This document shows, in pieces, positions 7,563 through 37,946 of a DNA stretch of 64,000 bases (position 1 is the stretch's first letter; every line of letters starts with the position of its first letter). A program made the position numbers and the translations under genes. The DNA is from a virus. The DNA lies in IMG/VR virus record IMGVR_UViG_3300020048_000136. One strand, written 5' to 3'. The notes beneath the pieces were generated by a model. The model ran no database searches and had not been told where the DNA came from. It was given only the letters and a program-made list of their open reading frames with translations.

Positions 7563-7874
7563 TTAGAATGGCAAGTCATCATCAATAGGGGCAGCGTTCC
7601 GAGTGGGTTGTGGAGCAGGAGCAGGTTGACGAGCAGGAGCAGGAGCAGCAGTAGTCTCATCTGCCGATTTAGGAGTGAATGTATCCAACTCCAAGTAGTA
7701 GCTTCCGCCCTTAGATTTGTTGATACTCAGGTTTACCCAACCATTCTTGATGTTTGCATTTAAGAAATCAACTGCATCCTCTACCTTGATTGATAGCTTT
7801 CCTACCACGAAGTCGGGTGCATTGTCTCTACGTTTGAAAGAGAATCCGTTAGCAAAGATTTTTTCTTCTGCCAT
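7563..7874 (-). CDS. ssb: single-stranded DNA-binding protein
   Basis: C-terminal acidic tip DDDLPF preceded by a Pro/Ala/Gln-rich linker, as in bacterial and phage SSBs. Sits among replication genes. Confidence 0.7.
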   Translation of the reverse strand: MAEEKIFANGFSFKRRDNAPDFVVGKLSIKVEDAVDFLNANIKNGWVNLSINKSKGGSYYLELDTFTPKSADETTAAPAPARQPAPAPQPTRNAAPIDDDLPF

Positions 7875-7977
7875 AATTGAAAGTTGTTTTTGTTTTTGTG
7901 TCCCAAATATTTATAATATAGTGCCGAAGATTGGAACGTACTTCGTCATTATATGGAGTGTCGTCAAAGACAAATCG

Positions 7978-8067
7978 TGGTTGGAATGGGAATCGAACCC
8001 ATACTCCGCAGAAGATACCCCACTTTCGTGGCTCGACTACATAGTGCTGCCATTACACTATCCAACC
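7978..8067 (-). tRNA. tRNA-like gene with a non-canonical, expanded anticodon arm (no assignable anticodon)
   Basis: Minus-strand RNA has acceptor stem GGUUGGA/UCCAACC and a D-arm GUG(U)-AAUGGCA-(G)CAC. The T-arm is AUGGG-UUCGAUU-CCCAU, the discriminator is A, and no CCA is encoded. The anticodon position holds stem UGUAG/CUGCG enclosing 25 nt, which include a CCAC-GAAA-GUGG hairpin. Confidence 0.55.
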
Positions 8068-8086
8068 CCCTTTATATTAAAGGGTA

Positions 8087-8827
8087 TTAATTATCAATTA
8101 TCTCGTCAATGTAATAGTTCTCAATGTCCTCAGGATGACCTTGGGCGAAGAACTTATTGAATACCTCAATTGCCCTTGCAACCTTGAACTCGCCATTCTT
8201 AACGAATGCTTCAGTAGGTCTGAAGATTCCAAGCTGTTGAGTCTCTTTATCGATGACAAAGAAGATGAGCGGTTTTCCGAAGAGTATTTGGTAGATGTAT
8301 GCTTGGCTGTCGTAGTTGTACATACGTGCCGACCATTTGAACTTATTGATGTCACTTGTGGTCTTCAAGTCGATTATGCAATTATCGGTTACGATATCCG
8401 CTTTCCCCTTCCACATCATTCCTTGAATCTGACCAACAGCAGGTTCTTCAAACTTGTTGCCAACCTTGTAAATCTCATCAAAGAAATATATGTTTGATTT
8501 CATTACGCTCGCAAGGCTGACAATATTGTCGTACTCCTTCTTCAGCATAACAAAGTCAAGGTTGTTAGTCTCAATGAACGCTTTGTACTCTTTTGTGGTA
8601 CGTGTTGTGACATCTACAAACTGAACCAATTTAGCTTTCTCCTGCTCTATCAGAAGTTGGTGGAAGAATCTCCCCTCGGCAAATGCCTTGGAGTCTTCAC
8701 GCTCAACCCCGAATAATTTAGGGTTTGAAAGTAATATTCCGATATCGGAATTTGATAAGTAATTCTTTCCTACACCCGTGTAGTACTCGGAATCAGTCTT
8801 CAGTAAATCAATTACGGCTTTATCCAT
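8087..8827 (-). CDS. PD-(D/E)XK (RecB/Cas4-like) exonuclease
   Basis: Motifs GKADIV...IIDLKT and QAYIYQ. Immediately adjacent to the annealing-protein gene, forming a recombination pair. Confidence 0.7.
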   Translation of the reverse strand: MDKAVIDLLKTDSEYYTGVGKNYLSNSDIGILLSNPKLFGVEREDSKAFAEGRFFHQLLIEQEKAKLVQFVDVTTRTTKEYKAFIETNNLDFVMLKKEYDNIVSLASVMKSNIYFFDEIYKVGNKFEEPAVGQIQGMMWKGKADIVTDNCIIDLKTTSDINKFKWSARMYNYDSQAYIYQILFGKPLIFFVIDKETQQLGIFRPTEAFVKNGEFKVARAIEVFNKFFAQGHPEDIENYYIDEIIDN

Positions 8828-12603: not shown

Positions 12604-12654
12604 TCCGTTTCATCGTTTACGAATCATCGGTCAGGATACACATCCCAAGACAGA
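12604..12654 (-). ncRNA. hammerhead ribozyme-like element HHR-3 (type III topology, U4C core variant)
   Basis: Minus RNA reads UCUGU-C | UUGGGAU-GUGU-AUCCUGA | CCGAUGA | UUCG-UAAA-CGAU | GAA-ACGGA. Same architecture as HHR-1 and HHR-2, with compensatory changes in stem I and a G.U pair in stem III. Confidence 0.5.
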
Positions 12655-12683
12655 AGGAGTGTCTTCGACGACACCCCAACCCT

Positions 12684-14991: not shown

Positions 14992-15026
14992 GCAGCTAAG
15001 AGGGGAATCGAACCCCTCACAAGCAG
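14992..15026 (-). ncRNA. isolated tRNA T-arm/acceptor-like minihelix (or tRNA 3'-half relic)
   Basis: Minus RNA reads GUGAGGGG-UUCGAUU-CCCCUC-UUAGCUGCA, a canonical T-loop sequence on a 6-bp stem. No D or anticodon arm can be built upstream because that region is the 3' end of ORF 15030..15296. A 7-bp hairpin follows at 14969-14985. Confidence 0.4.
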
Positions 15027-15029
15027 AGT

Positions 15030-15296
15030 TTATGACCTTAAGAATGCCAATAACTCATCCATGTAGCTAACCTCATCACCATCGTCATTTGTTCGGGTAT
15101 CCAAATCCTCAAAGTAGAGGTATTCAGCAGCCCATTCCGAAAAACGTCCCTTCTGCTCGGCATCCATTGCCTTCCAAAGGTTTTTAGCTTGCGTATTCTG
15201 CCCGTTTGACCTTGAGTCTATGATGTACTCAAAGTAATCGTTGATGCAATCGAACTCGTATGGCTCATACAAATTCCTGTCTGCGAAGTAGTCCAT
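15030..15296 (-). CDS. hypothetical acidic protein (88 aa)
   Basis: Track ORF. Confidence 0.55.
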   Translation of the reverse strand: MDYFADRNLYEPYEFDCINDYFEYIIDSRSNGQNTQAKNLWKAMDAEQKGRFSEWAAEYLYFEDLDTRTNDDGDEVSYMDELLAFLRS

Positions 15297-15994: not shown

Positions 15995-16048
15995 TCCGTT
16001 TCGACTGTTTTCAGTCTTCATCAGCGAAGATACACATCTTCGGACGGA
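15995..16048 (-). ncRNA. hammerhead ribozyme HHR-1 (type III topology)
   Basis: Minus RNA reads UCCGU-C | CGAAGAU-GUGU-AUCUUCG | CUGAUGA | A | GACUG-AAAA-CAGUC | GAA-ACGGA. All core residues are present: C3-A9, G12A13A14, A15.1-U16.1 and the GUC cleavage triplet. One extra nt lies between A9 and G10.1. Confidence 0.75.
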
Positions 16049-16072
16049 GGGAATGTCTTTAAAGACAATCCC
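16049..16072 (-). terminator. 12-bp hairpin abutting the HHR-1 5' end (contains the TGTCTTTAAAGACA palindrome)
   Basis: GGGAATGTCTTT/AAAGACAATCCC with one mismatch. Lies 10 nt after the stop of 16083..16379. The T-run is on the plus strand only. Confidence 0.45.
16054..16067. repeat. palindrome TGTCTTTAAAGACA (hairpin upstream of HHR-1)
   Basis: Exact match. Confidence 0.95.
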
Positions 16073-16401: not shown

Positions 16402-16455
16402 TCCGTTTCGACTCTTTAGAGTCATCATCAGCGAAAGCACTCACCTTCGGACGGA
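16402..16455 (-). ncRNA. hammerhead ribozyme HHR-2 (type III topology)
   Basis: Minus RNA reads UCCGU-C | CGAAGGU-GAGU-GCUUUCG | CUGAUGA | U | GACUC-UAAA-GAGUC | GAA-ACGGA. The core is identical to HHR-1, and stems I and II carry compensatory differences. Confidence 0.75.
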
Positions 16456-16475
16456 GGGAGAGATTGCGCTCTCCC
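16456..16475 (-). terminator. 7-bp hairpin abutting the HHR-2 5' end
   Basis: GGGAGAG-attgcg-CTCTCCC, 10 nt after the amidoligase stop. Confidence 0.45.
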
Positions 16476-17523: not shown

Positions 17524-17566
17524 TGGGAGTGAGATGAATCGAACATCTCACTTGCACCTTGCTCCC
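17524..17566 (-). ncRNA. tRNA acceptor/T-arm-like minihelix
   Basis: Minus RNA reads GGGAG-CAAGGUGCAA-GUGAGAUG-UUCGAUU-CAUCUCAC-UCCCA. It has a T-loop sequence, a 3' part resembling an acceptor strand plus discriminator A, and GGGA/UCCC closure. It has no D or anticodon arms. Confidence 0.4.
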
Positions 17567-17572
17567 TGATTT

Positions 17573-17586
17573 TGTCTTCAAAGACA
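17573..17586. repeat. palindrome TGTCTTCAAAGACA (3 nt after the stop of 17589..18224)
   Basis: Exact match. Confidence 0.95.
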
Positions 17587-17588
17587 TT

Positions 17589-18224
17589 TTACAAAAATCC
17601 TTGTAGGAATTCAATCGCTGCCTGTATTTCGGATGCATTGTTTGTTGTTTTCAATTCCCCTGACTCTGTCACTCTTACAGCGACATTCTTAACATCATTT
17701 TTCCAAGTGAGGACAAATATCGCCTTCTCCCTCGTAACTGAGGGTGTTCCTTCTCCCTCTTCTCCCTCTTCTCCTTCTCCCTCCTCTGCCTGCGCTGCTT
17801 GCTGCTCCAAGGCTTTAGCGTATCTCAGCAGTCCTTCAATTGTGCGCTCTGCATCATCACCGTTATTCTCGGCAATAGTGCAGTCACGTTTAAATTTGGT
17901 GATAACCTCAGGTTTCACTTCCTGTAGCTTACCAACTTTCAGCATCTTATAGGCAAACGATTTCTGCCATCCGAATACCTTATTGAAGATGTCTTCCGAT
18001 GTCCAAGCTATTCCCTCAGTTGTCAATGTGTTAACTCCCTCCTCTGAGGTGAACCAAAGCATCGCTTTCAATACTAACTCGCTCAACTCAACCGATTTGT
18101 CGAATTTCTGCTTCTTGGCATTCTTTATGCCTGTGTTCAATATTTCAATTGCACTCAGGTTAATTGCCTGACGTACTGTTGCATTCTGTAGGAATGCTGA
18201 TTCAATTGCTAATAAATTGCTCAT
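17589..18224 (-). CDS. hypothetical protein with a Glu/Gly-rich linker (211 aa)
   Basis: Track ORF. Contains a possible HTH (FGWQKSFAYKMLKVGK) and the acidic low-complexity tract EEGEGEEGEEGEG. Confidence 0.55.
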   Translation of the reverse strand: MSNLLAIESAFLQNATVRQAINLSAIEILNTGIKNAKKQKFDKSVELSELVLKAMLWFTSEEGVNTLTTEGIAWTSEDIFNKVFGWQKSFAYKMLKVGKLQEVKPEVITKFKRDCTIAENNGDDAERTIEGLLRYAKALEQQAAQAEEGEGEEGEEGEGTPSVTREKAIFVLTWKNDVKNVAVRVTESGELKTTNNASEIQAAIEFLQGFL

Positions 18225-35514: not shown

Positions 35515-37946
35515 AAGACGTAAAGGTAAATATAGCATCTACTGCATTCCCAAGTCAATTCGTTCCCGATGCTGTAAAGCAGACGGATGAGTTCGGACTT
35601 CAGATAGGTCAAGCTATTCAATACGAGTGGTTTAGAAAAGACGGTAATCAATGTAGATATTATAACCAATGGAGAGATTTCCATAAACTAAGGCTATATG
35701 CACGGGGAGAACAATCTATCCAAAAGTACAAGGATGAGGTTGCTGTCGATGGCGATTTATCATATATGAATTTGGATTGGACTCCCGTACCGATACTACC
35801 AAAGTTTGTTGATATTGTTGTGAATGGAATGTCCGAGCGGATGTTCAAGGTTAAGGCTTATGCACAGGATGCAATGTCTCAGCAGAAGAGGGGCAGCTAC
35901 CAAGATAATATTGAAGGGCAGATGGCAGCAAAAGATATCCTATTGAAAATAAAGGATGCTACAGGTGCTGACCCATTTACCACAAACCCTGATGACCTTC
36001 CTGCGAATGACGAGGAACTTAGCTTATTCATGCAGTTAAATTATAAACCTGCAATCGAAATAGCGCAAGAGGAAGCCATCAACACAATGCTTGATGAGAA
36101 TAACTACATTGAATTACGGAAAAGACTTGATTATGACCTTACTGTAATTGGTATAGCTGTAGCTAAACATGAGTTCCTGCAAGGTGCAGGTGTTGAACTT
36201 AGTTATGTCGACCCTGCGAATGTTGTTTATAGTTATACAGAAGACCCATACTTCAGAGATGTATTCTATTGGGGCGAAATAAAGACTGTTCCCGTAACCG
36301 AACTGATGAAGATTGACCAAAAATTAACTCCCGATGATTTGGAGGAGATTTCAAAGTACAGTCAAAGTTGGTATAACTACTACAATGTTGCTCAGTTCTA
36401 TCAGAATAGCATATTCTACAGGGATACCTGCACACTACTTTACTTCAACTATAAGACTACTAAAAAGGTTGTCTATAAGAAGAAGATACTTGAAGGTGGA
36501 GGCGCACGTATCATTGAAAAAGATGACACATTTAACCCACCCGAAGAAATGATGAAGGAGGGGAGCTTCGAAAAGATTGAAAAGACAATTGATGTGTGGT
36601 ATAATGGCATTATGGTCATGGGTACTAATATTATGCTGAAGTGGGAGGTTGCCGAGAATATGGTCAGACCCAAATCGGCTACCCAACACGCTATACCTAA
36701 CTATGTTTGCGTTGCGCCTCGGATGTATAAAGGGGTTATAGAATCATTAGTTCGAAGGATGATACCGTTTGCCGACCTTATTCAGTTAACCCATTTGAAA
36801 TTGCAGCAGGTTATTGCCCGTGTTGTTCCCGATGGAGTATTCATTGATGCAGATGGTATAAACGAAGTTGACTTGGGAACGGGAGCAGCTTACAATCCGC
36901 AGGATGCATTAAGACTATACTTCCAAACGGGTAGCGTTATCGGAAGAAGTTATACTCAGGATGGAGAGTTTAATAATGCCCGTGTCCCTATTACGCAGTT
37001 AACGTCAAATTCGGGCTTGTCAAAGACTCAGATGCTTATAGCTAACTACAATCATTACCTTGATATGATAAGGTCTGTGACGGGAGTTAATGAAGCGAGA
37101 GACGGTAGTAGTCCTGACCCCAATTCTTTAGTTGGTCTTCAGAAATTAGCAGCATTGAATTCAAATACAGCAACTCGGCATATTCTTGATGCAGGATTGT
37201 ATATGTTTAAAACTTTATCTGAAGGGCTTACATATAGAATTGCAGACATACTGCAATATGCAGACTTCAAGGAAGAGTTTGCTAATAAGATTGGGAAGTA
37301 TAATGTATCTATACTTGAGGAAACAAAAGAACTATATGTCTATGACTTCGGAATCTTTATTGAAGTATCGCCTGACGAAGAGGATAAGGCAAAACTTGAA
37401 GCCAATATACAGGTAGCCCTTGCAAAGGGGGATATCTATCTTGAGGATGCCATTGATATAAGGGAACTCAGGAATACAAAACTTGCGAATCAACTTCTTA
37501 AGATTAAGCGAGTCAAGAAACAAGACCGTGAAGAGAAGATGAAGATGCAACAGCAAGCTATGATATCTCAACAGCAACTTAAGTCTCAAGAAATGGCAGG
37601 ACAGACTGCCATGCAAACCATACAGGCAGAGACTCAGAGTAAAATGCAGATTAAACAAGCCGAAGTTGCATTTGACATAGAGCGTATGAATAATGAGGCT
37701 AAGTTAAAGAGTCAATTAATGCGTGAAGAGTTTGATTATAATATGCAATTAAAAGGTATTGCTGAATCGTCATTAGCTAATAGAGACCAAATGAAAGAGG
37801 ATTCTAAATCTAAGCGAATCAGTCAACAAAATACAGAGCAATCTAAGTTAATCAACCAAAGAAAGAATAACCTGCCTCCTCAGAATTTTGAATCTAATGA
37901 GGATAGCTTAGACGGATTTGACCTTGCTGAGTTTGAACCACGATAA
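35511..37946 (+). CDS. portal protein
   Basis: 811 aa, positioned between TerL and the scaffold/capsid genes. Gln/Lys-rich C-terminal extension. Confidence 0.6.
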   Translation: MKDVKVNIASTAFPSQFVPDAVKQTDEFGLQIGQAIQYEWFRKDGNQCRYYNQWRDFHKLRLYARGEQSIQKYKDEVAVDGDLSYMNLDWTPVPILPKFVDIVVNGMSERMFKVKAYAQDAMSQQKRGSYQDNIEGQMAAKDILLKIKDATGADPFTTNPDDLPANDEELSLFMQLNYKPAIEIAQEEAINTMLDENNYIELRKRLDYDLTVIGIAVAKHEFLQGAGVELSYVDPANVVYSYTEDPYFRDVFYWGEIKTVPVTELMKIDQKLTPDDLEEISKYSQSWYNYYNVAQFYQNSIFYRDTCTLLYFNYKTTKKVVYKKKILEGGGARIIEKDDTFNPPEEMMKEGSFEKIEKTIDVWYNGIMVMGTNIMLKWEVAENMVRPKSATQHAIPNYVCVAPRMYKGVIESLVRRMIPFADLIQLTHLKLQQVIARVVPDGVFIDADGINEVDLGTGAAYNPQDALRLYFQTGSVIGRSYTQDGEFNNARVPITQLTSNSGLSKTQMLIANYNHYLDMIRSVTGVNEARDGSSPDPNSLVGLQKLAALNSNTATRHILDAGLYMFKTLSEGLTYRIADILQYADFKEEFANKIGKYNVSILEETKELYVYDFGIFIEVSPDEEDKAKLEANIQVALAKGDIYLEDAIDIRELRNTKLANQLLKIKRVKKQDREEKMKMQQQAMISQQQLKSQEMAGQTAMQTIQAETQSKMQIKQAEVAFDIERMNNEAKLKSQLMREEFDYNMQLKGIAESSLANRDQMKEDSKSKRISQQNTEQSKLINQRKNNLPPQNFESNEDSLDGFDLAEFEPR

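Follow-up and report, generated by a model that had tools for sequence, protein, structure and literature searches.

A tRNA, or a tRNA mimic, embedded in a long transcript can be cut by RNase P to generate the 3′ end of the upstream RNA, which is then protected by structure, as in the mitochondrial punctuation tRNAs and in MALAT1/mascRNA. Clustered hammerhead ribozymes that flank genes in phages and prophages were reportedly described by Perreault et al. in 2011. The t-elements of plant mitochondria are defined by a T-arm motif, GGTTCRANYCC; they adjoin mRNA ends, where they are interpreted as cis-acting signals to RNase P and RNase Z, and once excised a t-element can survive in the form of a small RNA (Forner et al. 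2007, PMC1920247). The "enigmatic" tRNA introns of the Lak megaphages are ~93 nt long and carry their own T arm, and their removal leaves a canonical tRNA (Devoto et al. 2019, PMC6784885).

Here we describe a 90-nt tRNA-like element from a phage operon. In common with t-elements, it is a non-canonical cloverleaf that keeps an acceptor stem and a GGTTCRANYCC-type T arm, and it lies at a predicted mRNA boundary on the sense strand. T-elements are organellar, whereas the phage element belongs to an operon of a bacterial virus and its ends are predicted; the phage variants, moreover, form a family at a fixed gene junction and alternate with hammerheads at other junctions. Like mascRNA, the element has no normal anticodon loop, which sets it apart from the mitochondrial punctuating tRNAs, which are real decoders; MALAT1 is eukaryotic and has a triple helix, whereas the phage element has a simple hairpin. 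The Lak tRNA genes resemble it in being oversized phage tRNA genes (Bacteroidota hosts) with an anticodon loop split by an insert that is not a group I intron, but the insert of our element would be only 18–20 nt and leaves no canonical tRNA.

The window, by which we mean the whole 64,000-nt stretch analyzed (IMG/VR record IMGVR_UViG_3300020048_000136), represents most of a roughly 60-kb phage. Its structural genes include those for a large terminase, a portal, a crAss-type muzzle domain and a GroEL homologue, and the early genes on the minus strand comprise a SNF2-type helicase, a primase, a 103-aa gene, a PD-(D/E)XK exonuclease, a Sak annealing protein, an amidoligase and a GATase/GGCT pair. 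The junction that holds the element is made up of the following features, in the direction of transcription.

8087..8827, minus strand: PD-(D/E)XK exonuclease (DUF3799, exonuclease VIII-like), the upstream gene (PHROG 412, E 6e-26; PF12684, E 2.7e-19)
8068..8084, minus strand: 7-bp hairpin CCCUUUA-AUA-UAAAGGG, seen in the sequence (−8.3 kcal/mol with flanks)
7978..8067, minus strand: tRNA-derived anticodon-less element, 90 nt (from Rfam RF00005, ARAGORN calls and fold energies)
8044..8058, minus strand: D arm GUGU / AAUGGCA / GCAC with the equivalents of G18 and G19 (from the sequence and the Rfam alignment)
8007..8041, minus strand: replacement of the anticodon arm, a stem UGUAG/CUGCG (8041-8037 / 8011-8007) enclosing 25 nt with GAG/CUU pairing (from the minimum free energy fold, the frame-constrained fold and their energies)
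8020..8031, minus strand: CCAC-GAAA-GUGG hairpin capped by a GNRA tetraloop (from the sequence and a pattern count)
7986..8002, minus strand: T arm AUGGG-UUCGAUU-CCCAU, which fits the GGTTCRANYCC motif
7959..7972, minus strand: degenerate operon palindrome (TGTCTTnnAAGACA type) downstream of the element, seen in the sequence as a weak hairpin (−2.9 kcal/mol)
7563..7874, minus strand: downstream 103-aa gene (M..EKIFADGF..), conserved in all relatives, with homologues after the same slot

The exonuclease stop codon lies 2 nt before the 7-bp hairpin. An initial reading made from the letters alone (the sequence-only reading) had noted such a hairpin ahead of the element, and we find it at 8084-8068, flush with the 5′ end of the element and ending at position −1; the −1 nucleotide is a G that is paired inside it. 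The hairpin is not a terminator on the sense strand because no T-run follows it, and the terminator listing has it on the plus strand only. No sense-strand terminator was found between the exonuclease and the 103-aa gene. The sequence-only reading had also placed the element between the recombination genes and ssb. Its location between the exonuclease stop at 8087 and the start of the 103-aa gene at 7874 stands, but the name ssb is only putative, as the 103-aa gene gave no match in Pfam, PHROGs or PDB sequences.

Read from the sequence, the acceptor stem consists of seven Watson-Crick pairs between 8067-8061 and 7985-7979 (GGUUGGA/UCCAACC), with A at 7978 as the discriminator, and U8 and A9 follow it and lead into the D arm, whose loop GG is the partner of the T loop and can form the elbow. 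The variable loop has 4 nt (GAGU), GGTTCGATTCC is present, the 7+5 acceptor/T stack is intact, and all 21 of 21 stem pairs of the four arms are formed; no CCA is encoded at the 3′ end. The cloverleaf with the rod in place of the anticodon arm has a computed folding energy of −25.7 to −26.6 kcal/mol. The rod alone is no stabler than shuffled sequence (−8.9 kcal/mol compared with −7.0 ± 2.3 kcal/mol, 20% of shuffles being equally good), and its CCAC-GAAA-GUGG hairpin occurs once in the 64,000-nt window, with 0.1 copies expected by chance. The anatomy given by the sequence-only reading (acceptor stem, D arm, variable loop, T arm, discriminator, stem enclosing 25 nt and GNRA hairpin) is thus borne out, except that in its register 2 nt rather than 1 separate the D stem from the anticodon stem.

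The same reading had called the locus a tRNA-like gene in which a GAAA-capped rod replaces the anticodon loop, and Rfam confirms the tRNA likeness. The tRNA model RF00005 scores 42.9 bits, compared with a gathering score of 29 (E 3.5e-8 for the local region and 1.7e-6 for 12.7 kb), which places the observation far beyond chance, and the alignment spans every arm except the anticodon arm, taken as a 36-nt local insert. A search of 251 or of 12,701 bases yields this match, whereas the whole-window run on all 64,000, at the gathering threshold with fast filters, gave no match of any kind. The Rfam filters can lose elements that carry large inserts. The element has the 7-bp acceptor stem of a canonical tRNA, a D arm with G18 and G19 and a 5-bp T stem with a T-Psi-C-type loop, and shares its acceptor, D and T arms and the nucleotides of tertiary contacts with canonical tRNAs (RF00005) and with class II-like phage tRNAs. 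In contrast to a canonical tRNA, its stable fold has no 5-bp anticodon stem with a 7-nt loop carrying U33 and a purine at 37, and the 25-nt loop found there forms the GNRA-capped rod.

ARAGORN gave calls that disagree across its default, intron and tmRNA modes: tRNA-Ser(cga), tRNA-Asp(auc) and a spurious tRNA-Trp with a 106-nt intron. The default call, tRNA-Ser(cga) of 91 nt, forms three of five pairs in the anticodon stem and leaves a 23-nt open variable loop, and its fold (−15.5 to −18.8 kcal/mol) is 8–10 kcal/mol worse than the cloverleaf with the rod. The call with introns, tRNA-Asp(auc), removes an 18-nt intron at 32/33 and has U at position 37. Neither ARAGORN with introns nor Rfam, two of the checks proposed at the outset, yielded a canonical cloverleaf with a defined anticodon. 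The sequence-only reading had further held that no excision could produce a loop with both U33 and a purine at 37. This is correct in the register it used and fails after a shift of one pair in the stem, with A·G on top and the G-C pair opened as 32/38, which gives G32-U33-CGA-G37, a 20-nt insert and C38. The CGA is the anticodon of the default ARAGORN call, and the insert falls exactly at the canonical 37/38 site. In the product, 27:43 is an A·G mismatch, the variable loop has only 3 nt, 32 and 38 form a Watson-Crick pair and G37 stands beside A36; it would also be a tRNA-Ser without a long variable arm, which bacterial SerRS needs.

Known classes of interrupted or unusual tRNA-like RNA did not accommodate the element. 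A bulge-helix-bulge (BHB) intron has two 3-nt bulges around a 4-bp helix, whereas in the element a 3-bp helix is flanked by the bulges UC (2 nt) and GGUAU (5 nt), neither of which lies at the 37/38 boundaries. Group I introns are self-splicing, are built on a P1-P9 core and measure some 200 nt or more; the insert, at 18–20 nt, is far too short, and no Rfam intron family matched. tmRNA has a tag reading frame, and the ends of the bacterial Y RNA YrlA emerge from a Ro-binding stem opposite its tRNA-like module, whereas the ends of the element are the ends of its acceptor stem; ARAGORN -m reported no tmRNA, and no tmRNA or Y RNA family matched in the Rfam searches. A profile scan of 28 ORFs, among them every ORF of 240 aa or more apart from those of 1051, 1541 and 3218 aa, found no RNA ligase, splicing endonuclease or integrase family. 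An attP or integration site was rejected on the grounds that no integrase is present in the scanned ORFs and that the element presents a whole tRNA shape and not just a 3′ fragment. Taken together, the aberrant products, the lack of a BHB structure, an insert too short for a group I intron and the lack of a ligase or endonuclease gene among the scanned ORFs make decoding unlikely, and we consider it highly probable that the element does not decode.

Searches with the element itself gave no close counterpart. In a pattern scan of bacterial genomes, the same acceptor and T loop were found only in tRNA-Phe(GAA) genes of unrelated phyla, and alignment with these genes gave the element no identity; the idea that the GAAA cap is a relic of a Phe anticodon loop is unsupported, as U33 is missing. 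Exact-pattern scans of IMG/VR with the D arm plus T arm and with the 3′ half returned ordinary phage tRNAs or nothing, and a BLAST search of a phage database returned only short T-arm matches, one of which led to a tRNA-Ile(UAU)-like gene of Cellulophaga phage phi38:1 (described below).

We therefore turn to the interval between the exonuclease and the next gene (the slot) in other phages. A first search with exonuclease peptide patterns collected 34 IMG/VR and 80 metagenome loci, 114 in all, mostly marine and 25–67% identical. Neither a tRNA-like element nor a hammerhead was found in the slot of these loci, apart from a tRNA-like element of 76 nt in L007 that ARAGORN missed and Rfam scored at 19.9 bits; these 114 loci proved too distant. 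The informative relatives came from a second search, of the full records from which the amidoligase loci had been taken. It yielded 33 loci whose exonucleases are 57–70% identical, and 31 of these loci extend past the gene. The slot contains a tRNA-like element of 76–105 nt in 13 of these 31 loci. In 12 distinct slot sequences, that of the window among them, 143 of the 144 cells of the acceptor and T stems are paired. Both partners have changed at eight pairs (acceptor pairs 1, 4, 5 and 7 and T pairs 1–4), and the stack is always 7+5. The middles of the same 12 sequences, 44–73 nt long, are no more alike than background and contain no canonical anticodon loop; the hairpins of the relatives at the anticodon position have loops of 3, 4, 5 or 9 nt with no common anticodon, the one in L184 being capped by GAAA like that of the window. 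Paired and covarying top halves together with scrambled middles indicate that selection keeps the tRNA top half at this junction and ignores the bottom half.

Annotation tools see little of this family. ARAGORN in default mode called 1 of 12 relatives with the T-arm motif (L184, with C at 37), and the Rfam tRNA scores of the slot elements in relatives run from 43.6 bits down to undetectable; those of L169 and L170 retain a tRNA-Leu-type D arm. No such element occupies the slot in at least 11 of these 31 loci, and where it is missing the slot holds only a palindrome hairpin or has taken in a small ORF; no hammerhead was found in this slot in any relative. The element is dispensable here, since many relatives have the palindrome hairpin only. 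Compared with the relatives of the AGUCAGG type, the window element is 58–74% identical in its top half and at background in its middle, with only G2, U3 and G6 of the acceptor in common, although slot, geometry and the 7+5 anticodon-less design are alike. The sequence of the window copy differs from this majority, which makes common descent uncertain; the window element may have been captured independently, in which case covariation would be a weaker argument for this copy. Unrelated insertions of 330–430 nt, enough to hold a small ORF, occupy the exonuclease slot in L171, L172, L179, L185, L195 and L197, and the junction looks like an insertion hotspot. In L196 (3453-3538), ~1.2 kb downstream of the exonuclease, ARAGORN with introns reports a tRNA-Gly(ccc) that carries 11 nt inserted at 37, which may be another aberrant tRNA-like module.

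Further modules of two kinds are present on the same strand of the window.

17524..17566, minus strand: T-loop minihelix of 9 bp plus GGG/CCC (12 bp) with the loop UUCGAUU, intergenic between ORF 17589-18224 and the amidoligase gene
16402..16475, minus strand: hairpin and type III hammerhead-like motif after the amidoligase gene (CUGAUGA...GAAA core and GUC site read directly)
~15995-16072, minus strand: hammerhead-like copy (core read directly)
14993..15072, minus strand: tRNA-like element of ~80 nt, seen in the sequence, with a 6-bp T stem, loop UUCGAUU, a 6-bp acceptor-like stem and a 45-nt middle
12604-12677, minus strand: hammerhead-like copy (core read directly)

The T loop UUCGAUU is identical in the elements at 7978-8067, 17524-17566 and ~14993-15072. 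The tail of the minihelix can alternatively be read as a discriminator C with an encoded CCA, and the element at 14993-15072 overlaps the last codons of ORF 15030-15296. Each of the three hammerhead-like motifs has a hairpin ahead of it, and the layout of stop codon, hairpin and module is common to them and to the element at 7978-8067; self-cleavage of a hammerhead would leave the upstream gene ending in the hairpin plus six nucleotides. A search with Rfam RF00008 at E ≤ 1 of the copies at 16402-16475 and ~15995-16072 reported neither. In both, the stretch from the CUGAUGA box to stem II is longer by one nucleotide, and the copy at 12604-12677 has a U4C change in the core.

In relatives, the two kinds of module exchange places. 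Among 40 homologous loci, the slot downstream of the amidoligase gene holds a type III hammerhead in 35, a T-loop mini-mimic of ~45 nt in 4 and nothing in 1. In the upstream slot, 4 loci have a hammerhead, and 2 loci as well as the window have a T-loop mimic. A mini-mimic consists of a 6-bp acceptor, a linker of ~10 nt with AUGG and a 6-bp T stem with the loop UUCGAKU. Three of the hammerheads in relatives, homologous to copies in the window, score 34–47 bits with RF00008. Over all T-loop modules the stack of acceptor and T stem measures 11–13 bp, mostly 12, with linkers of 9–58 nt. Orientation is close to absolute in the relatives, with 28 sense and 0 antisense T-arm motifs and 73 sense and 1 antisense hammerhead motifs. 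This swapping means that a self-cutting device and a device shaped like a tRNA-processing substrate replace each other at fixed gene boundaries. The phage hammerheads thus share with the T-loop mimics the intercistronic sense-strand slots of the same operons, either one filling the same slot in sister phages; hammerheads cut themselves, whereas a tRNA mimic lacks a ribozyme core and depends on enzymes recruited from the host. A palindrome, GUGUCUUnnAAGACAC, stands 0–4 nt upstream of almost every hammerhead or T-loop module in relatives L129–L201. Its copies in the window lie at 16049-16072 and 17573-17586, and at the 7978-8067 element it is degenerate and downstream (7959-7972).

Our preferred reading, to which we give a probability of about 60%, is that the element does not decode and acts instead as a processing signal, with cuts by RNase P and probably also by RNase Z; we infer both the cuts and the enzymes that would make them. 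The element would be transcribed within the message of the early operon because no sense-strand terminator lies between the genes. It retains what processing enzymes read in a tRNA, namely the 12-bp acceptor/T stack, the T loop and the D loop with GG. Host RNase P would recognize the stack and the elbow of T and D loops and, given its established specificity, would cut before G1. Such a cut would leave the exonuclease mRNA ending exactly at the 7-bp hairpin, a likely shield against 3′ exonucleases, and a cut after A73 by RNase Z or an equivalent would free the downstream mRNA; the lack of an encoded CCA would suit RNase Z. The 90-nt RNA would be a by-product that may persist. Nothing would require its bottom half, and the anticodon arm would drift, here to a GAAA-capped rod. 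The paired G at −1 is not ideal for RNase P, and the full D arm and the 12-bp rod exceed the needs of a processing signal, leaving room for a second function. One such combination, which we regard as unlikely, is that this group of phages, of Bacteroidota-type hosts, splits its early transcripts with interchangeable hammerheads and tRNA mimics, the full-size mimics also being stable CCA-tailed RNAs whose bottom halves have a second role, such as occupying a host tRNA-binding defense or modification factor.

The sequence-only reading had left three options: a tRNA with an unusual insertion, a decayed tRNA, or a non-decoding mimic acting as a processing signal, decoy, primer or handle. Only the processing-signal version of the third draws support from the relatives, through the covarying top half in the slot of 13 phages and the swaps of mimics with hammerheads, and its decoy, primer and handle versions found no specific support. 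An RNA of that other kind, a stable small RNA whose tRNA-like top half serves another job and whose cleavage, if any, is only its own maturation, is an unlikely rival. Its job might be to occupy, as a decoy or sponge, a host tRNA-binding enzyme of defense or modification, to serve as a handle that is CCA-tailed or aminoacylated, or to act as an RNA linked to replication. Retention of the full L-shape (GG in the D loop, elbow and 12-bp stack) beyond what a 45-nt mini-mimic needs, the recurrence of a GAAA-capped hairpin in L184, the hypervariable middles, which could mean diversifying selection, and the location in the replication/recombination module all speak for it. However, the middles share no conserved motif across relatives and have no anticodon-loop likeness to any nuclease-targeted tRNA, at least 11 of 31 close relatives do without the element, as does every one of the 114 distant loci except L007, and mini-mimics without a bottom half occupy equivalent slots. 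That a real phage tRNA gene took up an insertion in the anticodon loop and has been decaying since, the element being its functionless relic, seems improbable. It is the only tRNA-like gene of its kind in the window, has no same-sequence homologue in IMG/VR and carries a rod no stabler than shuffled sequence, as a relic might, but decay would hardly have spared all 21 stem pairs or left such motifs on the sense strand only. The sisters, moreover, keep the top half paired by compensatory changes while the middle is scrambled, which points to selection on the RNA rather than neutral decay and contradicts the decayed-tRNA option in the sense of a functionless gene.

The insertion option takes its most concrete form as a decoding tRNA from which a hairpin insert of 18–20 nt is removed after transcription, a mini-intron akin to those of Lak. 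The shifted register, with its insert at the canonical 37/38 site and U33-CGA-G37 left behind, is what such a tRNA would be expected to show, and unexplained tRNA introns are reported in phages of Bacteroidota hosts (PMC6784885). These points are outweighed by the five defects of that product listed above, by an alternative product with anticodon AUC and U37, and by bulges of 2 and 5 nt around 3 bp, none at the 37/38 cut sites, in place of the 3-4-3 BHB arrangement. Lak introns, at ~93 nt with their own T arm (PMC6784885), are of a different make, and the loops of 3, 4, 5 or 9 nt in the slot homologues share no anticodon. With no ligase or endonuclease gene seen among the scanned ORFs, the insertion option is poorly supported, and we hold this reading to be very improbable. 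Still less credence goes to the idea that small selfish elements, inserting beside the palindrome GUGUCUUnnAAGACAC, carry the T-loop modules and hammerheads as cargo, with slot sharing reflecting target preference. Nearly every module in relatives directly follows that palindrome, presence is patchy among close relatives and unrelated small ORFs occupy the same slot, but mobile cargo would not explain a strictly sense-strand orientation or RNA helices maintained by compensatory substitutions, no repeats or target duplications were seen on either side of the element, and its insert occurs only once in the window.

If RNase P and RNase Z do cut at the processing signal we propose, these phages would have two swappable ways to split polycistronic messages into single-gene, hairpin-protected pieces: the hammerhead as an autonomous device and the tRNA mimic as one that borrows the host machinery for tRNA maturation. 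The principle of tRNA punctuation and t-elements would then extend from organelles to bacterial viruses, odd "tRNA pseudogenes" miscalled by gene finders would be explained, and the mimics would form a natural series of minimal RNase P substrates of 45–105 nt with very different bottom halves. In the literature covered by full-text searches we found no account of punctuation by tRNA mimics in phages, or of phage operons in which such mimics and hammerheads alternate, which is not proof of novelty. For annotation, the gene at 7978-8067 should not be counted as a decoding tRNA.

Several smaller observations concern the neighboring sequence and other phage tRNA genes. A pseudoknot-like leader, GCUUAGCCUCAGAGG ... 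AGACUGAGGCA, is conserved ahead of the 103-aa gene in nearly all close relatives (for example L174:2355-2430, L180, L175 and L191), and the window, at 7880-7935 on the minus strand, has a comparable pairing of GUUCCAA with UUGGGAC; the more distant relatives L008 and L020 have a different pseudoknot-like leader at this place. The leader may be a translational operator of the 103-aa gene. Two 92-nt tRNA-Ile(UAU) genes, L002:4860-4951 and L004:3272-3363, have a canonical CUUAUAA loop and an extra arm and share the D arm GUGUAAUGGCAGCAC with the element. In Cellulophaga phage phi38:1 (L121:2463-2535; NC_021796.1 ~36613-36685), a tRNA cluster includes an unannotated tRNA-Ile(UAU)-like gene, missed by both ARAGORN and the record annotation, with a 7-bp acceptor stem, the loop CUUAUAU and a bulged T stem.
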